Made by a program: the position numbers and the translations under genes. The notes beneath the pieces are model-generated. The model was given only the letters and a program-made list of their open reading frames with translations. It was not told the origin of the DNA and searched no databases. Of a DNA stretch of 37,174 bases, positions 19,861-31,110 are shown piece after piece; position 1 is the stretch's first letter; every line of letters starts with the position of its first letter. Source of the DNA: a virus (taxonomy: Duplodnaviria; Heunggongvirae; Uroviricota; Caudoviricetes); the IMG/VR virus record IMGVR_UViG_2671181127_000013, positions 1 through 37,174 of that record. One strand, written 5' to 3'.

Positions 19861-20697
19861 TCAGAATTCAGCCAGTGTCTGGTCAGTGCCGCCAGCGGAA
19901 GTAAAACGCTGCTGTGGATCGGCATCCTGGTTTCTCAGTTGCGCTTTCAGTGCTGCAAGCTCGTGACTGAGCTCATCCAGCGCCGTTTTGTCGAGGGCAT
20001 GTTTCTGCTCCAGAGTGCTGAAACGGTCGATAAGATCTGCATGATCGGATGCGATGTTTTCCACAACGTCGCGCAGCTGGCTGAACTGCTCGCCATCCGC
20101 TGTGCGTGTTTTGCTGATGAGTGCCATGACGCGGCTGAACCACTGACGGCTCTCTTCCGTTCGCTGTTCTGTGGTGGTAAGCATCTCTGCTTCCATGGCG
20201 ACGGTGAACATGGGGGGTTCTGTTGTGCACTTACTGAACTGCATGATGCTGGCGCGTTGCTGTGCGGCAAACTCCAGGCGTTCAGTGCCCAGACTTGCTG
20301 GCGTGTCGGTCATTGCCAGACCCACAATGTAAGGCCCCTTGACGGCGTCCAGCTCAGGCAACATCTCAATGCTCGAATACACTTTTTTCCCGTCAGCAAT
20401 CATGTTTTTCATGCGGTCGGTGGGTTCAATTTCGGCATATAACGCTGTACGCCCTGCCAGTTTCCCTTCGGTGATTTCATCAGTTGACAGAGCGATCAGA
20501 TCACCCACTGCGCAGAGTTCACTGGATGGCCATATCGAAAGGACGTGCTCAATGTTCACCCGGGAGGCGTAAACGGACGGGTCATAGTTTTCTGCGGCCT
20601 GACGCAGCATTTCACCAGAAATTTCACGTCCGTCGATGGTTGAACCGGAAACGGCAACGCGAAATTTTTTGCGCTCTGGCGTGTTTTTGCTTCCCAT
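19861..20697 (-). CDS. O: Capsid scaffolding protein O
   Basis: KKFRVAVSGSTIDGREISGEML...YDPSVYASRVNIEH resembles the gpO N-terminus; start at ATG 20697 with GGAGA SD. Confidence 0.85.
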   Translation of the reverse strand: MGSKNTPERKKFRVAVSGSTIDGREISGEMLRQAAENYDPSVYASRVNIEHVLSIWPSSELCAVGDLIALSTDEITEGKLAGRTALYAEIEPTDRMKNMIADGKKVYSSIEMLPELDAVKGPYIVGLAMTDTPASLGTERLEFAAQQRASIMQFSKCTTEPPMFTVAMEAEMLTTTEQRTEESRQWFSRVMALISKTRTADGEQFSQLRDVVENIASDHADLIDRFSTLEQKHALDKTALDELSHELAALKAQLRNQDADPQQRFTSAGGTDQTLAEF

Positions 20698-20852
20698 GGA
20701 AATTCTCCATAACCTGGTCGTTTTTCCCATGATGGCGGCAGATAACGGTGTGTCTCAAGGTGCTTAAGTTGTATGGCGACGGGGACAACGCGGGCTGGTA
20801 TCAGGCGGTATTGCTGAGGCTTAATCTTGCCCTGTTAATGTCAGGGGGTGCA

Positions 20853-22586
20853 ATGATCCAGGATGTCTTTATTCGTATGCGGGCGAAACAGCTTTACTGG
20901 CAGGGGTATACCCCGGCGGATATCGCTCAGCTGATGGGAATAAACCAGAACACGATTTATTCGTGGAAAAAACGCGATGAGTGGGATGCCACTCCCCCGA
21001 TCCAGCGGGTCACCCAGTCCATTGATGCACGCCTGATACAGCTCACCGCCAAACCGGATAAAAGCGGCGGTGACTTTAAGGAAATTGACCTGCTGACGCG
21101 CCAGCTGAAAAAACTGAATGACGGTCAGGGAGAACAGGCTGTTTCCGGTAAGAAGCCCCGCAGGCGCAAACTGAAAAATCACTTCACCGAAGAGCAGATT
21201 GTCGCACTCAGGGAAAAAATCCTGCCGTCACTGGCCTGGCATCAGCGCGAATGGTACGACAACCGCCATCACCGCAACCGCATGATCCTGAAGTCGCGTC
21301 AGATTGGTGCGACCTGGTATTTTGCGCGCGAAGCACTCCTTGATGCACTGCGTGATGATGTCTCCGCCGGGTACCAGCGCAACCAGATATTTTTGTCCGC
21401 ATCCCGTCGCCAGGCGTATCAGTTCAAACACTTTATTCAGCAGGCGGCGCTGGAAGTTGATGTCGAACTGAAAGGGGGTGACAAGATTGTTTTGTCTAAC
21501 GGTGCAGAGCTTCACTTCCTTGGCACATCGGCAGCAACCGCTCAGTCGTATACCGGACACCTTAAATTTGATGAATTTTTCTGGGTCAGTAATTTTGTGC
21601 AGTTGCGAAAGGTGGCTGGCGCAATGGCGACCCTGAAAGGGCTTACCCGTACCTACTTTTCAACGCCATCGGGTGAAACGCATGAAGCTTATCAGTTCTG
21701 GACGGGGGATCGCTGGAACAGTGAGCGTCCCCGCTCAAAACGCACTGAATTCGATGTGTCTCATTCGAACCTGAAAGGGGGCGTGCTCTTCCCGGATAAA
21801 ACATGGCGGCAGATTGTCACCATTGAGGATGCAGTCGCGAACGGGTGGGAATATACGAGCATTGACGATATCCGGGATGAAAACACCGAAAGCGAATTTC
21901 GTAACCTGTACATGTGCGAGTTCGTGCGTGATGGTGAGGCGGCGTTCAGTCTGAATGCGCTGATCGGCTGTGGTGTGGATGGATACGACGAATGGCCTGA
22001 CTGGAAACCTTTTGCTGCGCGTCCGATGGGCGTGCGGGAAGTCTGGCTCGGGTACGACGCCAACGGCAGCAGCGGGAAGGGGGACTGCGGGGCGCTGTCG
22101 GTCTGCGTACCTCCACGGGTTACAGGCGGTCGTTTTCGTACCGTGGAGACGGTCAGGGTGCAGGGTATGGAGTTTGAACAGCAGGCGGCCCTGATTGAGG
22201 AATACACCCAAAAATATAACGTGAAACATATCGGCATTGATGTGACCGGCGGGAACGGGGAGGGGGTTTATCAGATTGTGAAAAAGTTTTTCCCGATGGC
22301 CGTACCGTACAACTTCAATATCGCCTCCAAGCGGGCACTGGTCATGAAAATGCTTCAGGTGGTGCGTGCCGGACGCTGGGAGTATGACCGCAGTGAACGT
22401 GACCTGATCCAGGCATTCGCATCGGTGCGAAAAATACAGACACCCGGCGGCTATATCACCTACGACACCGACCGCTCCCGTGGCGTCAGCCATGGTGACC
22501 TCGCCTGGGCAACCATGCTTGCTGTTATCAATGAGCCAATTGGTGCGGAGCGTGAGGATAATCGCGGCTTTGCAATGGAGTTCTGA
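20853..22586 (+). CDS. P: Terminase large (ATPase) subunit P
   Basis: About 577 aa, divergent from O as in P2; start at ATG 20853 with AGGGGG SD. Confidence 0.85.
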   Translation: MIQDVFIRMRAKQLYWQGYTPADIAQLMGINQNTIYSWKKRDEWDATPPIQRVTQSIDARLIQLTAKPDKSGGDFKEIDLLTRQLKKLNDGQGEQAVSGKKPRRRKLKNHFTEEQIVALREKILPSLAWHQREWYDNRHHRNRMILKSRQIGATWYFAREALLDALRDDVSAGYQRNQIFLSASRRQAYQFKHFIQQAALEVDVELKGGDKIVLSNGAELHFLGTSAATAQSYTGHLKFDEFFWVSNFVQLRKVAGAMATLKGLTRTYFSTPSGETHEAYQFWTGDRWNSERPRSKRTEFDVSHSNLKGGVLFPDKTWRQIVTIEDAVANGWEYTSIDDIRDENTESEFRNLYMCEFVRDGEAAFSLNALIGCGVDGYDEWPDWKPFAARPMGVREVWLGYDANGSSGKGDCGALSVCVPPRVTGGRFRTVETVRVQGMEFEQQAALIEEYTQKYNVKHIGIDVTGGNGEGVYQIVKKFFPMAVPYNFNIASKRALVMKMLQVVRAGRWEYDRSERDLIQAFASVRKIQTPGGYITYDTDRSRGVSHGDLAWATMLAVINEPIGAEREDNRGFAMEF

Positions 22587-22591
22587 ACACA

Positions 22592-23635
22592 ATGAGTAAA
22601 CGCAAAAAATACACCGGAAAGCGGGGGCAGGATTCGCTACACGATGCACTGAAATCAACGCCTGCACTCAGCGCATTCACCTTTGATGGGCCCTATGAAG
22701 TCAGCCGCATGGATCTCCTGGATAACATGTCATGTGCAGATAACGGGCGCTACTTTGATACCCCCATGGACTGGAACGCTATCGCCCGTGCATCCCGTCG
22801 TGCGTCCTGGCATCAGTCGGCTTTGTACTTCAAGCGCAACGCCCTGAACGGGTGCTTTGTTCCTCACCCTCTGCTGTCCCGCCAGGCGTTTTCAGCGTTT
22901 GCGCTCGACTGGTTTGTGTTTGGTAATGCCTATCTTGAAGTGCGGCGTAACAGGCTGGGGGAACCACTCCTGCTTCGCCCGGCACTGGCAAAATATACAC
23001 GCAGGGGAAGTGACCTGGATACCTACTGGTATCTCAACGACGACGGTACGGAGTTCAGTTTCAGGAAAGGGACTGTGTGCCACGTGCTTAATCCTGATAT
23101 TAATCAGGAGATCTACGGGATGCCGGAATATATCGGCGGGTTGCTGTCTGTCAGCCTGTCAAACTCAGCGGATACATTCCGCAAACTCTACTACGATAAC
23201 GGCTCGCATGCCGGGTGTATTATCTATGTAGGCACATCTCAGGCGAATGCGGAAAGTGTCGAGGCCATTAAAAAAACGCTTACGGATTCCCGTGGTCGCG
23301 GGGCGTTTAAAAACCTGTTTCTACATGCACCGGGTGGTGGCAAGGATGGTGTGCAAATACTGCCGTTCCAGCAGATAACCGCAAAGGATGAATTCCTGAA
23401 CATCAAGGGGAGCGCCCGCGACGATATCCTTGCTGCCCATCGTGTACCACCTCAACTGATGGGGGCAATGCCTGACGGGAATGCGGCGTTTGGTGACGTT
23501 GAAAAAGCGGCGAGAGTGTTTTTCATCAACGAGTTGCAACCTGTCATGGAGGCCATGAAGCATGTCAATGAATGGCTTGGCGTTGAGGTGATGCGCTTTA
23601 ACCCCTATGCCCTGCTTCTGGATAACGCCAGCTGA
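22592..23635 (+). CDS. Q: Portal (capsid vertex) protein Q
   Basis: 347 aa following P; gpQ-like size and position next to cos. Confidence 0.85.
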   Translation: MSKRKKYTGKRGQDSLHDALKSTPALSAFTFDGPYEVSRMDLLDNMSCADNGRYFDTPMDWNAIARASRRASWHQSALYFKRNALNGCFVPHPLLSRQAFSAFALDWFVFGNAYLEVRRNRLGEPLLLRPALAKYTRRGSDLDTYWYLNDDGTEFSFRKGTVCHVLNPDINQEIYGMPEYIGGLLSVSLSNSADTFRKLYYDNGSHAGCIIYVGTSQANAESVEAIKKTLTDSRGRGAFKNLFLHAPGGGKDGVQILPFQQITAKDEFLNIKGSARDDILAAHRVPPQLMGAMPDGNAAFGDVEKAARVFFINELQPVMEAMKHVNEWLGVEVMRFNPYALLLDNAS

Positions 23636-23663
23636 CGCGCTTCGCTTGTCTGCTGCTTCGCCG

Positions 23664-23685
23664 GGGCATAAAAAATTTATGCCCC
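23664..23685. terminator. Palindromic hairpin between convergent Q and the 167-aa gene, in the expected cos region
   Basis: GGGGCAT-AAAAATTT-ATGCCCC inverted repeat; no clean U-run, so terminator function is uncertain. Confidence 0.35.
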
Positions 23686-23700
23686 GACTCTCCAGCTCTC

Positions 23701-24204
23701 TTAACGGAATGCGGATGGCGTTCTTCTTTGCAGCTTGCTGATAATATGCATCTTCATACTGTTTACTATCGGCAGCCATTCCCTGTCACCGTCTCCGTTG
23801 ATGACCACGCGAATGGAGGTATCATCTTCCACGCGAACCCGAAGAGATACACCGTCTTTTCCGACGGAATGTAACTCCATTGCCAGGACTATGTTTACCG
23901 ACTCTCCTTCATCGTGTGAGTCAACCCATGTTCTTACAGCCATCCGGAATATGTTATCTGTGTCGGTTGCAATCATATTTACCGGAAATGGCCTGAAGTC
24001 CCGATCGTTTCTGCACGGAAACCCCGTATCAACGTAACGATGATGCTCGCCGTCTTTGTCTTCCCATGTCTCTGAAGGCAATTCCAGCCACTGCTCATAA
24101 AAAGCAACCAGCTTTTCAGCCTGATTGCGCAGAATCCCTGTAACCTCCCGCCTCGCGTCCCGGCTCTTTTTGTTTGCCAGGTACAAATCGCGAAAATGGC
24201 TCAT
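23701..24204 (-). CDS. Hypothetical protein (167 aa), cos-proximal accessory gene
   Basis: Clean ORF with no family I recognise; sits where P2 carries old. Confidence 0.5.
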   Translation of the reverse strand: MSHFRDLYLANKKSRDARREVTGILRNQAEKLVAFYEQWLELPSETWEDKDGEHHRYVDTGFPCRNDRDFRPFPVNMIATDTDNIFRMAVRTWVDSHDEGESVNIVLAMELHSVGKDGVSLRVRVEDDTSIRVVINGDGDREWLPIVNSMKMHIISKLQRRTPSAFR

Positions 24205-24704
24205 GTCGCTCTCCTTTGGTCTGTTTATGCCAGCCTGTATTCTGCGCTCACCTCATATTGTGCGCAAGTTTTCACCCGTGAATGACTGATACTTTAAATT
24301 CTATTAACTTTATGATTTCAGTGATTTTTGTCTCTCTTTTTTATCCCGTTCGTCACGTCCGTTTCCCTCCCGATCTCCGACCTCGCCAGACGCAATCAGA
24401 CGCATTCTGACGGCCTGTTTCCCTGACCATGTTTTGATGTGGTTTTTCAAAACTGACTTTACTGCGTGCGTATCACGCGCCATACGACCCCAAATAAAGC
24501 AACCCGCCTTCCATCCCTCAATTCGGGCGCCCTTCCCTCGTCGCCTGCGCGCAGCGATCGCCTCGTTTTTCGTGCACCGTGCAAAGTGGCTTCAGCCAGC
24601 GCCGTTACTGGGCTGAAAGGGTAAAAAACACATAAGAAAAATTGTGCAATTTCGTGCACTTTTGTGCGGTTTTCCAGGTGGTGTTTATGCGGGAATCGCA
24701 GGCT

Positions 24705-24734
24705 AAAAAAAGCATGAGCGGGGATTGCCCCCGC
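24705..24734 (-). terminator. Rho-independent terminator of the two-gene module
   Basis: Minus-strand GCGGGG-loop-CCCCGC hairpin just after the stop at 24740, followed by a T7 run. Confidence 0.5.
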
Positions 24735-24739
24735 GATAT

Positions 24740-25117
24740 TCATGCCGCCCGATGAGCTTCACCTACTGACGGGTCTATTATGATTTCAAAATCCGTGAAC
24801 AACGCTTTCGGCTGTACGCAGTTACCTTGTTTTTCCAGGCTGACAAAGCCGTATCGACTCAGCATTTTTAACGTTGCTGACAAATTACTTAACTGCCTTC
24901 CTGAAAGACTGGCAAGTTCTGTCATTGTCTGCGGTTTTTCCGCATCCATGATACGCAGAAGCGCGATATTTTCGTTGCTCAGCGCCTGACCCAGAGCGTT
25001 CAGAGATGAAAACCAGACTCGCGGTTCGTCAGGTTCTGGTTTTAGTTTCCCTTTGGCTATATCCAGCATTCTCTGGCGAAGGACTTTCTCCGGGATAATG
25101 CCGATACGGGCTTTCAT
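24740..25117 (-). CDS. Winged-HTH DNA-binding protein (125 aa), second gene of two-gene module
   Basis: TMTELASLSGRQLSNLSATLKMLSRYGFVSL is a typical wHTH recognition segment; start overlaps upstream stop (ATGA). Confidence 0.6.
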   Translation of the reverse strand: MKARIGIIPEKVLRQRMLDIAKGKLKPEPDEPRVWFSSLNALGQALSNENIALLRIMDAEKPQTMTELASLSGRQLSNLSATLKMLSRYGFVSLEKQGNCVQPKALFTDFEIIIDPSVGEAHRAA

Positions 25118-25488
25118 TTCTTCCCCCTTTGCTGTTCAGCAATCACTCTGTCTACATGGTTAAAGAAATCCAGTAAAAGCTGTTCCGCAGAAGTGAATTC
25201 ATATGGATAGCCTTTATCGGACGATGTTCTGTGAATATGGTCATAAACGGTAATGCGCCCGGTAAATTTCCCTTTCTTTGGTGGCTTTATTCCGTGAGCG
25301 TTATCCATTCCAAAAACCCGGGAGTTATAAGGATCGTGCAATGTCAGGTTGTAGCGTATTCCATGTGGTCTGAACTGGCTTGGGCTAACCCTGTATGCTT
25401 CAATCTTCCACCAGTAACCATTATCCATGTGGTGCTGGTATCCATGCATATCCAGAAGGGTGTTCAGCCCATGATCATTGTTTTTCAT
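25114..25488 (-). CDS. Hypothetical His/Tyr/Trp-rich protein (124 aa), first gene of two-gene module
   Basis: Clean ORF translationally coupled to the wHTH gene; preceded by an AT-rich intergenic region; family not recognised. Confidence 0.55.
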   Translation of the reverse strand: MKNNDHGLNTLLDMHGYQHHMDNGYWWKIEAYRVSPSQFRPHGIRYNLTLHDPYNSRVFGMDNAHGIKPPKKGKFTGRITVYDHIHRTSSDKGYPYEFTSAEQLLLDFFNHVDRVIAEQQRGKK

Positions 25489-25671
25489 AACTGATTCGTA
25501 TCACCTTACTTATGACCAAATCATAACATCGTTTTTTTCTTTATCAAGGTGGGTTATTGTGCTGTTCTTGTGGTTATCGACGTTAACTTATGTACATATT
25601 TGAATTCGTAGTGGTTAATATGAAAAAAGTGTCTGACGAATTTGACGGCTTCTGAATACGTAAAACTGTGT

Positions 25672-25703
25672 CAGGCGGAGTATGTTTCTCCGCCTTTTTG
25701 TTT
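25672..25703. terminator. Hairpin plus T-run between the SSB-like gene and the two-gene module
   Basis: GGCGGAG-TATGTTT-CTCCGCC followed by TTTTTGTTT on the plus strand; orientation ambiguous. Confidence 0.4.
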
Positions 25704-25742
25704 GTGCCAGCCCGGCGTCTCACATCATTACTCACATATTGA

Positions 25743-26060
25743 TCATATTGCGGTTCTTGAGCTGATAATGCTTTGTGCCAGCAACTGCCAGCCTTCTTTC
25801 ATCTGTCCGTATTTGTCCTGATATCTGTTTACCTGCAAGTTCCCGTGCACCTGTACCAGGTCGCCTTTTTTGTGTTTTGCCAGTTCTTCGTGCTGCTTCC
25901 CGAATGCGATAAGGTAAAGCCACATTGTGGTTGACTGTTCTGCGCCATGGCCGGGCAGTGATATCGCCAGTCGTGCAGCTGTTACATCGGTGCCTCTGGA
26001 TGATTTTCTTGTCGTCGGGTCTTCCGCCAGTCGTCCCCGTGTTGCAATCTGCGTTGTCAT
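25743..26060 (-). CDS. SSB-like OB-fold protein (105 aa)
   Basis: Pattern L..DP..R......V...RLA.S.........W....AFGK.AE....KKGD.V.V.G.L....Y.DK.G parallels E. coli SSB OB-fold core; start at ATG 26060 with GGAGA SD. Confidence 0.5.
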   Translation of the reverse strand: MTTQIATRGRLAEDPTTRKSSRGTDVTAARLAISLPGHGAEQSTTMWLYLIAFGKQHEELAKHKKGDLVQVHGNLQVNRYQDKYGQMKEGWQLLAQSIISSRTAI

Positions 26061-26083
26061 ATTTGTCTCCGTTGGTGGTTTAG

Positions 26084-26431
26084 TTATTGGACTGATATGA
26101 CTGGCAGATCTCCGCCAGCGCCGTAGATAAACAGAATTCGCTTCATGACTTCGCTGCGCTTGCAGACTTCGATGACTGATTTTTCCTGTTGCCATTCAGC
26201 CCGTTGCGCCAGCTCCAGTCGTTCCTCTTCCGTTGGCTTCCGGTAATGCGTTATCTTGTCCGTGTACCCGTCCACAACCAGCAGGCCTTCCCGTACCATT
26301 TTTCCGGCGGCCTGATTGATGACGGTTCTTTTCACGCCCAGTTTTTCTACCAGTTCCGGTGCGCTGAAGCGTGCGTGCGTTTCCAGGTAGCGTAAAATGA
26401 TTTCCTTTCCGGTCATTCCTGGGGTCTTCAT
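26084..26431 (-). CDS. Putative winged-helix DNA-binding protein (115 aa)
   Basis: Start at ATG 26431 with AAGGAG SD; EIILRYLETHARFSAPELVEKLGVKRTVINQAAGKMVREGLL resembles a wHTH. Confidence 0.45.
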   Translation of the reverse strand: MKTPGMTGKEIILRYLETHARFSAPELVEKLGVKRTVINQAAGKMVREGLLVVDGYTDKITHYRKPTEEERLELAQRAEWQQEKSVIEVCKRSEVMKRILFIYGAGGDLPVISVQ

Positions 26432-26679
26432 TTGGTGGCTCCTTCGTTGTTCCGGCGCTCCCGGAGTTCGGTCAGTGCTGCCAGTAAATTTTCCCACCAT
26501 GTTTCTTCCACGACCGGATTTTGGCGTGAAAGCAGCTGTTGCGCCGACTCAATCATGCTGTTCAGGTCCCTGTCGCTGATCGCCCTGGTGCTGTTAATGG
26601 TGTGTTGCTGTCTGGTGCTCATGATGTCTGTGGTTCTCCTGTTACTTGCGGTGCTGCTTTCTGGCGGCTGAATGTACAT
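26428..26679 (-). CDS. Hypothetical protein (start uncertain; alternative ATG at 26622)
   Basis: ORF with ATGA overlap to the downstream gene. Confidence 0.35.
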   Translation of the reverse strand: MYIQPPESSTASNRRTTDIMSTRQQHTINSTRAISDRDLNSMIESAQQLLSRQNPVVEETWWENLLAALTELRERRNNEGATK

Positions 26680-27043
26680 AACTTGCTATGGCCGCCTTGC
26701 GGTTAATGCGCTTCATCGCCCTGGCTAAATCTTCGTTGTGTTTCCTGATATCCTTTTCGTGATATGCCTTCATGATCCTCCCGGCTGGCGTCAGTGGTTC
26801 TGGTGCTCCCGTGTTCCTCAGTCTCAGGGCTGCGATAAAGTCGCCGCTGTCTCCCCATGGTCTGGCGTTCAGGATGTCGGCAGTCATACTTTCGGTACTC
26901 CTGTCTGGACGGGCTATGGTGATTTCCAGCTGGTCACCTGGCTGCGGTCTTCTTATCAGTCCTCTCAGCGTCAGCGCCGGTAATCTCTTGGTCATGACGA
27001 CGCTGAACTCTCGTTGCTGAAGCGTGCAGTTGAATCGCGTCAT
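26642..27043 (-). CDS. Hypothetical protein (133 aa) downstream of A
   Basis: ORF overlapping the end of gene A by 4 nt. Confidence 0.4.
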   Translation of the reverse strand: MTRFNCTLQQREFSVVMTKRLPALTLRGLIRRPQPGDQLEITIARPDRSTESMTADILNARPWGDSGDFIAALRLRNTGAPEPLTPAGRIMKAYHEKDIRKHNEDLARAMKRINRKAAIASYVHSAARKQHRK

Positions 27044-29562
27044 TCATCCCCCTTCAGCTGTGCTACTTCCTTCAGGCTTCCGGTGCTTTCATCCCAGTGA
27101 ACAATCCGCCCGTCAGGCAGGCGAACGCGCGCCCCGCGATACACGGAAAGCGCCGCACTACTGTGTAACTCCTCGCCCGTTGTACTCAGAGTACTGGCGA
27201 TCAACCTGGTGGTCATATCCGGTTTTGCGAGTGCCGCACCGGCATATACCACGCCTTCAGGTGCGGGGAACCCGCCGCTGTTTGCGGTTTTTGTGGATTT
27301 CTGGTCATTTTTCAGCTGTTGGGTGAGCTGTTTTCTCTGTACTGGAGTCAGTGACCTTAACCACTCACCCGGATCACCTTCCGGTACGATTAGTTTTTGT
27401 TCTTTCCTCCCTTCCGGTGGTGGTGTTTTGTCCGTTTCGTTGTTTGTTTTTTCATCATGGCGACAGTTATTGCCACGAGTCCAAGGTGCGGCGAAGCCGC
27501 CCCCAACGTCAAAATCCTCGTCCGTGCTGTTGTCGGCTTTCGCTTCTTTTCTGACCAGTTTCCACTCGTCCGGATGGGTGCAGATGGTGTAGCGCTCGCC
27601 GAGCGACGGGGCACAAATTCCGTAGATGCGCTGCGGGAATTCGCCGTAGTCGTTGGCCTCATCTGCGGTTTCGTATGCGGTGCGGATCAGGTACAGGTTG
27701 CGTGGAATGAGCACGCCGCCCTGACGGTTGATGTAGGTGGCAAAACACCCCACGTCAGCGGCGGCCAGAATGGCGTCAATGTCGTCATGGTCCAGGCGCT
27801 TCGGTGATGCGGGGTTACGCTCCATTTGTCCGGCAAGGCGGCGGAGTTCACGCCATACCTGGCGGGGCGGGATACCGAAGAACTGGAACTGCCGGATGCG
27901 GTGGAGACTCGCCCAGGCAATGGCGTTTTCCACGGTTTCCGCCATGGTTTTTCCCGATTCTTTATCGGCGTAAGGTTTGCCGGTTTTCGGGTCATTGTCG
28001 TGAAAGGTGCTGGCGTCCAGGTTCTTGCCAATATAGGTTGCGATGTAGCTTGCCGGTGTGCCTTTTGCCGGGTCGATTTTTTCGCACTTGAAGCGCGGAG
28101 AAATATCATTCCCCAGTTCTGCGCGATCTGATTTGATTGCTGCGTCACGCATGATTTCAATGATGCGTTCTTCATTGTCCGGGGCGGTGAATACCAGCAT
28201 GTGCCAGTGCGGTGTGCCGTCATGGTGTGGCTCAACGGTGCGCACCCCGTACCAGCTCAGGCCTTCTTTGTTGAGTTTTTTTCTTGCAGCTGCAAAGACG
28301 TCGTAAACCAGATAATCACTGGCATCGCGCACGGTGGCACCGTTGTATTTCGGGTTCAGGCTGCCGTCCTCGTTTACGCTGTGAAAGCGGGAAGGGCAGG
28401 TCACTGTCACGAAGAACGCGGAGTCACCACGCGATTCGGCGACCTGTTCCATCCCTCTGACGCAGGCCATCATCTCGTTGCGGCGGTTGCGCGGATTCCC
28501 CAGCCCTGACCAGTACACGTCCTCCAGGCTCAGGCGTTCACCGTCTTCGTTTTCAATGTCCCAGCTTTTGAGAAAATCACGGGTGCGCTGGCGTTTCTCC
28601 CGGAATTCCTGGAGTGACTCATGGCTGATGTAGGGGGATGCCTTGCGCGATACTCTTCCGGCGGCACGCAGTAATTCCTCCCGCCAGAGATCAGCGAGGT
28701 GGCGCAGCTGGTTGTTCCACCAGGTGGCGCAGGTGATACGCATTACCGCGCCCGGTACCAGTTCAGGGTCTGGTGCCGTGCGGCGGTCACGTCTGATCTC
28801 GAGTGACGGCCAGTATGGTGGGTTCACGCCCAGTTTTATTGCCATGCGCGCCAGCTGCTGGTAAGTCAGCAACCAGGTAAACAGGTTATCGTCGCCTTTT
28901 CCTGTCCGCTCAGTAACTTCATCACATATGCGTTCCAGTTCGGTGGAAAATGCCGCCGCCGTTAGTGTGGCAAGGCGCTGAATTTGATCACGGTTGAGTT
29001 GTGGCAGCATGAGTAATTCATCAAGGCGATGACGCGCTGCGGTGGCTTTGAATGCCGTCGTGGCGAAGCATTCATTCACCTGTTCGATGCGTTTCAGGCG
29101 TGTGCGCAGTCCACGGCGAACGAAGTTATCGGCCACGTGAGTGTTGTTGTTTTTCACGCCTTCATTGCGGGCGCTTTGTTGTTTGCGGTTTAAACGCGCC
29201 AGATCACGAATGAGCACGTTGCCAAGAAACGAGGGCAGGGTGCGAAGTTCTGCCATGGCTTCCGATACCAGCGTTGGCGGATTTTCTCGTTTGTGTCTCG
29301 CCAGTTTTTCCAGTCTGATCCGGCGCTCTTCGTCGTGGTGAAGATGCGAATTAATTCGCTTGCCTTCGTCTGTGTTTGTCAGGAAGGAGACGGTTTCTTC
29401 ATCCAGTCTGGCATCAATGCGAATGTCTTCGTTGATGTAGCTCTGAATGGCCTGGCGTAATGCGGTTGGTTGCGCTCTGCCGAACGTTTCAGGATCGATA
29501 ACCGGTAGCGGGGCGTTCCACGGGTACGCCAGTTGTGCGTTATGGTCGCTCATGCGTCGCAC
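27040..29562 (-). CDS. A: Replication initiation protein A (rolling-circle nickase)
   Basis: 840 aa with GTPHWHMLVF (HxH metal-binding motif of gpA-type initiators). Confidence 0.9.
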   Translation of the reverse strand: MRRMSDHNAQLAYPWNAPLPVIDPETFGRAQPTALRQAIQSYINEDIRIDARLDEETVSFLTNTDEGKRINSHLHHDEERRIRLEKLARHKRENPPTLVSEAMAELRTLPSFLGNVLIRDLARLNRKQQSARNEGVKNNNTHVADNFVRRGLRTRLKRIEQVNECFATTAFKATAARHRLDELLMLPQLNRDQIQRLATLTAAAFSTELERICDEVTERTGKGDDNLFTWLLTYQQLARMAIKLGVNPPYWPSLEIRRDRRTAPDPELVPGAVMRITCATWWNNQLRHLADLWREELLRAAGRVSRKASPYISHESLQEFREKRQRTRDFLKSWDIENEDGERLSLEDVYWSGLGNPRNRRNEMMACVRGMEQVAESRGDSAFFVTVTCPSRFHSVNEDGSLNPKYNGATVRDASDYLVYDVFAAARKKLNKEGLSWYGVRTVEPHHDGTPHWHMLVFTAPDNEERIIEIMRDAAIKSDRAELGNDISPRFKCEKIDPAKGTPASYIATYIGKNLDASTFHDNDPKTGKPYADKESGKTMAETVENAIAWASLHRIRQFQFFGIPPRQVWRELRRLAGQMERNPASPKRLDHDDIDAILAAADVGCFATYINRQGGVLIPRNLYLIRTAYETADEANDYGEFPQRIYGICAPSLGERYTICTHPDEWKLVRKEAKADNSTDEDFDVGGGFAAPWTRGNNCRHDEKTNNETDKTPPPEGRKEQKLIVPEGDPGEWLRSLTPVQRKQLTQQLKNDQKSTKTANSGGFPAPEGVVYAGAALAKPDMTTRLIASTLSTTGEELHSSAALSVYRGARVRLPDGRIVHWDESTGSLKEVAQLKGDE

Positions 29563-29966
29563 TCCCCGGCAGTTGCCACCTGAAACGCCGCGCGGTACAG
29601 CACGAGAAGGCGCTGATATTCACCGATAAAGTCTTCTGCGGTGTATATGCCTTTCACGGCCACGCTGTGGGTTGTCATTTCCAGAACCAGCGCCATCTCT
29701 GATGACGACCAGCTGATGGTGGTGCTGTCGGTGCCGTTGATGTGAAATAAACCCAGTCCATCACCATCACCTTTCACGTCCACGCGGTAACGACCGTCAA
29801 CGGTGAAGGAGAAATCCCCGGATGTGGTGATGCTGCGGGCAGCCTGTTTACAGGCGCGGCGGTAATAGTCGTGCCAGTCGTTCAGGCGGGAAGCCAGCCG
29901 GGGATCCACTGCCCACATCCAGTTAAAAAAATCCTGAATATCTGAAAGTCCCTTAACGCTCTTCAT
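29550..29966 (-). CDS. Hypothetical protein (138 aa) upstream of A
   Basis: ORF overlapping the A start. Confidence 0.45.
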   Translation of the reverse strand: MKSVKGLSDIQDFFNWMWAVDPRLASRLNDWHDYYRRACKQAARSITTSGDFSFTVDGRYRVDVKGDGDGLGLFHINGTDSTTISWSSSEMALVLEMTTHSVAVKGIYTAEDFIGEYQRLLVLYRAAFQVATAGECDA

Positions 29967-30034
29967 GAGAACCTCCGGTAACAGATGTGCGGAAGCCTCC
30001 CGCGTACGGGTGCGGGATGGCTTCAGGATGTTGT

Positions 30035-30262
30035 TTAGTGGTGGTGTTGCTGGTTGATAAGGTCCTGCAGCTCCGCGAGATCATCCGCCAGGTAGCTGAA
30101 AACAGCGGCACAGTAACGGTTTGACAGAGCGTGAGTGCGCTCATGCAGCATATTGATGTGCATGATTTGCGCGACGCGTGAGGCGCGGAAAAGTCTGCGG
30201 TTGATTTCAGTGCGGATGTGAAGACGCTCAGCGCGGGCGCGCTGTTGCTTGCGGTTTGCCAT
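30035..30262 (-). CDS. Hypothetical basic protein (75 aa)
   Basis: ORF; Arg-rich N-terminus, His-rich C-terminus. Confidence 0.35.
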   Translation of the reverse strand: MANRKQQRARAERLHIRTEINRRLFRASRVAQIMHINMLHERTHALSNRYCAAVFSYLADDLAELQDLINQQHHH

Positions 30263-30441
30263 GGTGTGGCCTCTTTGCTAGTAAGTTCTGAAAACTCACC
30301 ATCCAGAGCTGCGAAACTGTGGGTGGCGAGACGTACGAGGTTCGCAGTACCGGCTAGCAAAGAACCCGGCCCGACCGAAGTCGGCCCCGTACGCCCCGCC
30401 ATTATTCTGACGCGAAAAAGACGTGGCGATACAGTACGCAC

Positions 30442-30462
30442 AAAAAAACCGCTGGCGCGGTT
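30442..30462 (-). terminator. Putative rho-independent terminator separating early-left genes from the replication module
   Basis: Minus-strand ACCGC-GCCA-GCGGT hairpin followed by T7. Confidence 0.4.
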
Positions 30463-30645
30463 GTGCGCTTTGCTAGTCGGCGGGCTGCGAAACCCGGCAC
30501 CCGTTTTATGAGATGCGGGAAAACTGTAACCCGACCAGACGAGCGCTGGCAAGCGGTTTTTGTGTTGCGTGCTGATGTGGTTAGAATGTGGCGAATTAAT
30601 ATCACCTGGCAACTGGTGATTGTCTGCATACGCGGGGTGTTTCTG

Positions 30646-31110
30646 ATGAGTGATAAGCTCCCTTCTGATTACGACATTCTTTTTGACCTGTGGTACAGCT
30701 ACTGGCTTGAACGTATTACATGTGTGTTTCACCGACGCGTTTCTGCTGCTCTGCGAATCAGCGCCTTTCTGGTTGGTGTTGCGGCGTTTGTCCTGTGTGA
30801 TTTTGTTGTGTTGGTACTCTTCAGTGTGGTTCTGTTTCTGCTCTGGCAGTGCATGGCTGCCAGTTTTGAACGCAGGGCTGAAAAGGCTGAATGGCAGACA
30901 GTCAGTTACCAGCGCCTTATCAGTCAGCGCCATGTGATTAGTAAGGAATGCATGATTGCGCGCCTCTCCTTTGTTGAGGAAAGTGACAGTCCCATCATGG
31001 AGTGCATGATTAATCTTGCCTGGAATAAAGCCTGTGAGGCGGTTGGCAGCTCTTCGCGCAATCATGTTTCGATCTCCGGTCGGTTACTCAGTCGCCTGTG
31101 CGGCTTTTGA
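30646..31110 (+). CDS. Putative membrane protein (about 154 aa) encoded opposite to the early operon
   Basis: ATG at 30646; 30-residue hydrophobic stretch ISAFLVGVAAFVLCDFVVLVLFSVVLFLLW; possible TTGTGT-16 bp-TAGAAT promoter upstream. Confidence 0.35.
   Translation: MSDKLPSDYDILFDLWYSYWLERITCVFHRRVSAALRISAFLVGVAAFVLCDFVVLVLFSVVLFLLWQCMAASFERRAEKAEWQTVSYQRLISQRHVISKECMIARLSFVEESDSPIMECMINLAWNKACEAVGSSSRNHVSISGRLLSRLCGF

Follow-up and report, generated by a model that had tools for sequence, protein, structure and literature searches.

Why does a strong terminator-like hairpin stand on the plus strand among genes that are all read from the minus strand? The question is raised by a viral sequence of 37,174 nucleotides (nt; IMG/VR record IMGVR_UViG_2671181127_000013), a P2-like (Peduoviridae) prophage that is called the window below, at its full length. 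In its spacer at 25489-25742, between the replication genes and a TumE/HVO_A0114 gene pair, lies a hairpin that in our assessment is probably the orphaned plus-strand terminator of a leader cassette, one that in related prophages precedes a gene of the DUF4760 family. In the window it would be a recombination scar, and at most a passive plus-strand insulator.

The preliminary description of this spacer, as AT-rich DNA with a plus-strand terminator-like hairpin (about 25672-25703) among minus-strand genes, proved sound: the GC content of 25489-25742 is 38% compared with 54% for the window, gene calls and RefSeq annotation place all called neighbours of the spacer on the minus strand, and the hairpin coordinates were accurate to a base or two. 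The hairpin ranked top among the terminator-like sites in an 11-kb scan (20000-31000), and its plus-strand RNA folds at -14.7 kcal/mol (z = -4.6), with 0 of 200 dinucleotide shuffles as good. Strict criteria (perfect stem of 7 bp or more, 5 or more of them GC pairs, loop of 3-8 nt, at least 6 T in 8) applied to both strands of the whole 37 kb returned three sites (11963+, 25674+ and 381-), against 0.13 +/- 0.46 in 100 shuffles, and past the terminase-portal operon they gave no other strong plus-strand terminator. Its stem-loop and U tract have the form of a Rho-independent terminator on the plus strand, and as judged from the letters it is an intrinsic terminator at which transcription would be expected to end. 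A chance inverted repeat in AT-rich intergenic DNA, with neither history nor function, could be argued from lenient scans, which give many terminator-like sites in the region (29 versus 12.5 expected); the strict count speaks against it, and it is refuted by the homology of the hairpin and its flanks to a cassette conserved in many phages, leaving it virtually no chance of being right. Rfam covariance models (cmscan of 23500-27200, E up to 10) gave no match in 25489-25742, and an 11-nt direct repeat, TTTGTGCCAGC (25701 and 25772), is no more than chance would give in a region this large.

BLAST searches of the 254-bp spacer against phages and 5,426 E. coli genomes resolved it into two independent pieces and a junction, with break points at 24672/24673, 25580, 25699/25700 and 25749/25750. 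The first piece (25489-25580) moves with the TumE cassette and is present, without the hairpin block, in L007 (related loci carry L numbers) and in other E. coli prophages. The second, the hairpin block of about 120 bp (25580-25699), is found in P2-like prophages with quite different cargo (L001 and L003-L006), always on the plus strand and in one fixed place with respect to cos, the portal gene and the replication genes; it matches the Citrobacter phage Shae_phiSM (L001, 4001-4119) with 80% identity over 120 nt (E = 3e-25). Homology to the closest backbone, L006, extends up to 24672, returns at 25613-25699 (L006 4001-4086) and resumes from 25750 onward (L006 4660 onward), and these break points therefore define two replacements in the window. 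The TumE cassette (24673-25580) took the place of about 145 bp, and the 50-bp junction took the place of 573 bp that in L006 comprise a plus-strand DUF4760 gene and its terminator.

The relatives reveal what the hairpin block belongs to. In L001, L003 and L006 it lies immediately upstream of the plus-strand DUF4760 gene and consists of a ribosome-binding site, an 11-codon open reading frame (ORF), a spacer of about 17-20 nt, the hairpin and the T tract, with the gene starting 15-20 nt past the latter. The order of ribosome-binding site, 10-12-codon ORF, GC hairpin, T tract and DUF4760 start codon is conserved, and the product of the micro-ORF ends x-DE[FY][DE]G[FL]-stop. An unbiased census, for which loci were fetched by DUF4760 protein similarity and not by the peptide, found the micro-ORF in 30 of 31 distinct DUF4760 upstream contexts (25 from IMG/VR and six further homologues). 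Among the 25 IMG/VR regions, 23 have M-x(2-3)-[F/Y]DEFDGF-stop, then a GC hairpin and TTTTTT, with the DUF4760 ATG following within about 10-20 nt; MWDENDGF-stop and a terminator are present in one distant relative, and one region is disrupted by an insertion in the hairpin loop. All six further homologues (46-56% identity, by protein id), several of them outside P2-like prophages, have the micro-ORF (MKRIYRDEFEWV, MKFRDEFEGF, MRKFDEFEGF, MKKCDEFDGF, MSIHDEYEGF and MRYSDEYEGL); read by eye, four have a hairpin of unrelated sequence with a T-rich tract, a fifth has the hairpin but not the T tract, and the sixth lacks a hairpin altogether. The cassette also occurs in other Enterobacterales contexts, and a back-translated pattern search added Klebsiella, Enterobacter, Yersinia, Xenorhabdus and other genera.

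Two other patterns were set aside. The first DNA pattern, built from five sequences, matched seven viral contigs and none among the genome contigs and was too strict, and a spacer-plus-hairpin pattern for peptide-independent orphans returned only intact DUF4760-linked copies and 17 chance matches in GC-rich coding DNA. The loci L037 and L134 seem to represent both junctions of a mobile element inserted within the leader-terminator loop, each of them with GGGATTTGCTCCC. No annotation of the micro-ORF was present in the records of DUF4760 leader loci that were inspected, and a literature search found DUF4760 and the string DEFDGF in one paper each, both unrelated to the subject. Searches with PADLOC, PHROGs and PDB sequences yielded no function for DUF4760, which is predicted to be a membrane protein and whose modelled structure resembles, with a membrane anchor added, the EP domain of the plant immune proteins EDS1, PAD4 and SAG101.

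Both the peptide and the hairpin are conserved in the relatives. Within the motif codons, six of seven third positions vary compared with one of 14 first and second positions, and ten distinct 21-mers encode only FDEFDGF or YDEFDGF; because third positions vary and the first and second hardly do, the pattern is that of a coding sequence whose peptide is under selection. Distant relatives vary in the residue before DEF, which can be F, Y, W, R, C, H or S. In the hairpin, 93.8% of the cells are paired across 24 homologues, eight cells carry compensatory changes (G-C to A-U), and 0 of 500 shuffles reach the observed level; TTTTTT after the stem is conserved as well. Distant relatives have hairpins of unrelated sequence at the same place, and the Yersinia type has the same peptide with a completely different hairpin and a DUF4760 protein of only 40% identity. 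The distance from stop codon to hairpin ranges from 16 to about 62 nt, and in two chromosomal relatives the terminator or its T tract is missing.

This anatomy suggests that in the relatives DUF4760 would be expressed only by read-through of the leader terminator, since there is no room for a promoter of its own after it, and that the cassette would act as a leader limiting or gating DUF4760 expression. The ribosome-binding sites of intact leaders are GGAGGGG, AGGGGG or AGGAGG, and a CCUC spacer motif resembling an anti-Shine-Dalgarno (anti-SD) sequence, found in all DUF4760-linked copies of the window's clade, pairs with them; the fold of intact leaders, significantly better than that of shuffles (z = -3.7 and -2.4), combines an SD:anti-SD stem with the terminator. 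A candidate native promoter in the relatives (TTGAC[TA]-17-TAATTT; 8/12, not called by the promoter scan) has in its spacer an ATTACC-N6-GGTAAT palindrome, which is probably the operator of a repressor. This palindrome, absent from the window, was seen at L017:2290-2340 and in about 50 other IMG/VR loci (L175-L227), in promoter regions of phage contigs of about 40 kb, sometimes paired around a TTGACA/ATAATT promoter and sometimes beside a LexA-box gene. A search with the promoter-palindrome pattern returned no new orphan copies and showed the palindrome to be common in other phage promoters.

The intact relatives resemble leader-peptide attenuators (trpL, pheL, hisL) and the leaders of resistance genes (ermCL, cat, cmlA) in that a tiny, conserved coding ORF, which has a ribosome-binding site to itself, precedes an intrinsic terminator, and in that the regulated gene lies directly downstream without a promoter of its own, its ATG about 10-20 nt after the T tract. 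They differ in the stop-to-hairpin distance given above, in the two chromosomal relatives without terminator or T tract, and in having a conserved acidic C-terminal motif instead of a run of regulatory codons. Furthermore, no alternative antiterminator pairing was found in the DUF4760 leaders with RNAalifold and minimum-free-energy folds. Two structures were considered as antiterminators and rejected: the SD:anti-SD stem is clade-specific, without compensatory changes and compatible with the terminator, and a small stop-codon hairpin is inconsistent across sequences and does not compete with the terminator. Because no antiterminator was found, the spacing is loose and two relatives do without the terminator or T tract, a classical trp-type attenuator is disfavoured, and coupling at the level of the peptide or its translation is favoured. 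The conserved acidic-aromatic C-terminus beside the stop codon suggests either nascent-peptide or translation-dependent control of read-through, or a peptide partner of DUF4760. Arrest peptides (TnaC, SecM, SpeFL) are comparable, on the letters alone, in that the peptide and not only the RNA is conserved in a short upstream ORF, with conserved residues beside the stop; the DUF4760-leader peptide is, however, much shorter (10-12 residues). To our knowledge, DE[FY][DE]G[FL] fits no known arrest motif.

The copy in the window is a truncated member of this family (Table 1). Measured against the DUF4760-leader family as defined here, it has the homology, the synteny and the micro-ORF and lacks the downstream DUF4760 gene, as homology ends at 25699 and the SSB gene is next; unlike the attenuators, it has neither a downstream gene dependent on read-through nor a promoter. 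Only 40 nt upstream of the ATG are kept, and the candidate native promoter is therefore lost. The promoter scan found no plus-strand promoter-like site between 23825 and 28081, and the best candidates in 25489-25620, by scan and by hand, match at most 4/6 in one hexamer and fail in the other. The copy as a whole no longer folds significantly better than shuffles (z = -1.1), as the SD:spacer stem is gone and the terminator alone remains, and its peptide carries Ser at a position that is invariably Phe or Tyr in the clade. By analogy, the window element would work like an intrinsic terminator, and its ancestor like a leader-peptide attenuator.

Table 1. Positions of the leader remnant, the neighbouring cassettes and the main genes in the window
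Feature	Position	Strand	Basis or description
DUF4760 leader remnant	25580..25699	+	40 nt of 5' untranslated region, micro-ORF, spacer, terminator
Degraded ribosome-binding site GTAGTGG	25608..25614	+	alignments with intact leaders
11-codon micro-ORF MKKVSDEFDGF-stop	25620..25655	+	translation; open
17-nt spacer	25656..25672	+	alignment; CCUC motif lost
Terminator hairpin	25673-25695	+	AGGCGGAG-TATGTTT-CTCCGCCT; 8-bp stem, 6 GC pairs, 7-nt loop; then TTTTGTTTGT
T tract (TTTTTGTTTGT)	25695..25705	+	directly 3' of stem; homology to relatives stops at 25699
Junction sequence	25700..25749		no homologue in related loci; stands in place of the DUF4760 gene and its downstream terminator
TumE (DUF6516)/HVO_A0114 two-gene cassette	24673..25580	-	BLAST break points versus L006 and L007
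Cassette promoter region	25489..25580	-	accompanies the TumE cassette in E. coli genomes, L007 among them
TumE (DUF6516)/HVO_A0114 gene pair	24740-25488	-	Pfam HVO_A0114 at 6e-17; RefSeq names in identical E. coli locus
SSB-like gene	25743-26060	-	Pfam SSB at 2e-13; RefSeq annotation; last gene of the replication (gene A) operon
Replication endonuclease gene A	27040-29562	-	accompanied on this strand by several small genes
Terminase	20748-22586	+	
Portal	22592-23635	+	

The hairpin had also been proposed to be the 3' end of a short plus-strand RNA. For its origin this was correct, as the hairpin of the relatives ends a plus-strand leader of about 150-190 nt that encodes a 10-12-residue peptide and follows a candidate promoter. 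It is unlikely to hold for the window, where the leader promoter is gone, homology beginning 40 nt before the ATG, and where no annotated plus-strand gene and no sigma-70-like plus-strand promoter lies upstream. The further idea of an RNA divergent from the promoter of the two-gene module fell away.

The orphan might nevertheless be a still active stand-alone gene, either for a short plus-strand regulatory small RNA or for a trans-acting MKKVSDEFDGF that partners, neutralises or decoys DUF4760-type proteins of other prophages. Its ORF and terminator are intact, intact copies without DUF4760 occur in several Xenorhabdus species, and unrelated phages also have short ORFs, preceded by ribosome-binding sites, that end in the heptapeptide and a stop. 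In addition, the micro-ORF is tied to DUF4760 more tightly than the terminator is: L234 has no terminator and 28 nt to the DUF4760 ATG, an arrangement that resembles a two-gene operon and would fit a peptide partner. However, the window offers no promoter-like site upstream, the native promoter has demonstrably been replaced, the ribosome-binding site is degraded and the spacer motif lost, and there is no Rfam family match. The ORF is moreover broken in two of the three E. coli types without DUF4760, which were found by BLAST and are thus unbiased by the peptide: L004 has ATA for ATG and three C-to-T changes in the stem, and L005 has a frameshift and a broken T tract, so that both copies are visibly in decay. 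We therefore consider an active orphan unlikely.

A wider proposal would make the micro-ORF an undescribed micro-gene class, whose 8-12-residue product ending DE[FY][DE]G[FL]-COOH acts on DUF4760 as a nascent-peptide switch in cis or as a ligand, antidote or decoy in trans. The window orphan would then still supply peptide or RNA, for example neutralising DUF4760-type exclusion by competing prophages, and the heptapeptide ORFs of lambdoid and T4-like phages would be counter-defence mimics. We regard this proposal, taken as a whole, as improbable.

The heptapeptide ORFs deserve description in their own right. [F/Y]DEFDGF-stop occurs as ORFs of 8-21 codons with ribosome-binding sites in unrelated phages, comprising lambdoid loci (L087, L095, L109, L110, L124, L128, L140 and L151), T4-like loci (L094, L099, L100, L113 and L156:979-1044) and further loci (L090, L093, L108 and L121). 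In lambdoid phages the Q antiterminator gene and a terminator-like hairpin come first, followed by MYDEFDGF, which overlaps, in the +1 frame, the beginning of a conserved ORF of 52 aa. In T4-like phages MFSLRKFDAEDVDFFDEFDGF precedes gp47, and the PG7 annotation has it as a hypothetical protein of 21 aa; MLDEFEGFDEFDGF and MFDEFDGF are found elsewhere. Fewer than about one chance match of the heptapeptide with stop is expected in the viral collection, by a rough product of pattern probability and assumed collection size. A tblastn search with the 21-aa T4-like ORF, a short query of low complexity, gave no match. The leader peptide presumably resembles the C-terminal tail of SSB (DDDIPF) or the clamp-binding peptide of RB69 polymerase (KKASLFDMFDF).

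The preliminary description had alternatively read the hairpin as a bidirectional terminator. It would end the minus-strand gene A-to-SSB operon 47 nt past the SSB stop codon and shield the TumE cassette from read-through. The stem is symmetric, its minus-strand fold is just as good (-14.8 kcal/mol, z = -4.9), with an A-rich run ahead of it, and there is no other terminator-like site between the SSB stop and the TumE promoter. Like canonical bidirectional terminators, the hairpin has a symmetric GC-rich stem that is A-rich on one side and T-rich on the other. Unlike them, it stands between co-directional and not convergent units, SSB and TumE both being on the minus strand, and it has no minus-strand U tract within 7 nt of the stem: there the stem is followed by UGACACAGUUUUACG, with one U in the first 8 nt (minus-strand reading CCGCCU-GACACAGUUUUACG), and the terminator scan called no minus-strand site between 25489 and 25742, after the SSB-like gene. 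Across the 24 homologues the T tract is conserved on the plus strand only, and the three C-to-T stem changes of the L004 type keep G-U pairs on the plus strand and give A-C mismatches on the minus strand. Ancestrally, a plus-strand DUF4760 gene with its own convergent terminator stood between the hairpin and the minus-strand genes. Because a minus-strand U tract is lacking, the T tract is kept only on the plus strand and the origin is unrelated to the SSB operon, this explanation is weak and there is little reason to expect it to be correct; the SSB operon probably reads on or ends otherwise, for example by Rho.

The orphaned leader terminator thus remains our preferred explanation, and the following course of events would account for it. 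A TumE/HVO_A0114 cassette would have replaced the leader promoter and most of the 5' untranslated region, and DUF4760 would have been deleted immediately past the T tract, both swaps occurring in the fast-changing gpA-gpQ hotspot beside cos. This would have left a promoter-less and presumably silent micro-ORF, its ribosome-binding site weakened, together with a terminator of intact structure. The remnant might still act as a backstop by stopping antisense plus-strand read-through, for instance from the late terminase-portal operon, before it enters the SSB/gene A operon; judged by its placement, such a residual role is plausible.

Several observations weigh against this explanation. In the window the micro-ORF has stayed open and neither the hairpin nor the T tract is damaged, and Ser before DEF need not inactivate the peptide, that position being variable in distant relatives. 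Intact micro-ORFs without DUF4760 exist in Xenorhabdus and in a few other contigs, in a set collected by peptide pattern and biased to intact copies. The same 254 bp are 99.6-100% identical in two other E. coli genomes, and an IMG/VR contig matches over the 266 nt examined, a divergence too small to show decay or selection; E. coli LZSFT34 and JNEC-KY177 have this very locus, and E. coli no107 and JNEC-KY179 count, like Shae_phiSM, among the relatives with an intact cassette. Read-through transcription across the region is possible, and as no antiterminator was found the gating in relatives could be simple constitutive attenuation.

The TumE cassette sits where the relatives have the native promoter and 5' untranslated region of the DUF4760 leader. 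It has its own minus-strand terminator-like site (24734..24718) and the best promoter-like match of the 11-kb scan (10/12, with TG), consisting of a -35 element TTGATA (25547..25542), a 16-nt spacer and a TG-extended -10 element TATGAT (25525..25520). A palindrome read from the sequence, TTATGA-N5-TCATAA (25510-25526), overlaps this -10 element and looks like a candidate autoregulatory operator for the winged-helix HVO_A0114 protein.

Further features were noted on the portal side of the cassette. A 67-bp segment across the portal stop codon (23632-23698) is 97-100% identical in all related loci and holds a perfect palindrome with 11-bp arms, CGGGGCATAAA-AAA-TTTATGCCCCG (23662-23686), without a T tract on either side. 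This segment may be part of cos or of a packaging signal; the P2 cos sequence or overhang (GGCGAGGCGGGGAAAGCAC) was searched in the window and is absent. Between the cos-proximal conserved segment and the hotspot lies a 167-aa gene on the minus strand (23701-24204) that matches phrog_5091 (function unknown) and has no Pfam or PADLOC match, and for which PHROGs and PDB sequence searches yield no function; in L004, a gene of similar size is found on the opposite side of the 67-bp segment. Three direct repeats of TTGTGCA with 10-11 bp spacing (AAAAATTGTGCAATTTCGTGCACTTTTGTGCGG, 24638-24670) are kept in the inspected P2-like loci whatever the cargo, and in relatives are found some 20-30 bp ahead of the candidate leader promoter; their arrangement suggests a protein-binding array belonging to the backbone.

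The gpA-gpQ stretch of P2-like phages, beside cos, is a known hotspot of variable anti-phage cargo (Rousset et al. 2022, PMC9122126; NAR 2026, PMC13586616), in which small intergenic recombination remnants are common (PMC13586616). The window fits this pattern in its place between portal/cos and the replication gene, in the differing cargo on near-identical backbones and in the small intergenic leftovers after swaps. It differs in kind from what those papers describe, which is remnants of protein genes in general terms; the leader-terminator block is mentioned in neither (the word 'terminator' occurs in neither), and DUF4760 is not mentioned in PMC13586616.

These results correct the annotation of the window, in which the hairpin would be neither the end of the replication operon nor an antisense RNA gene; it would instead mark a recombination junction and date two cargo replacements in the P2 gpA-gpQ hotspot. 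The window copy itself is an ordinary but instructive scar, and the interesting part is its parent module, which is new and undescribed. If the peptide does gate or partner DUF4760, the module would be a compact case of peptide-level control of a candidate defence gene, and would give reason to seek micro-ORFs at the borders of defence cassettes.
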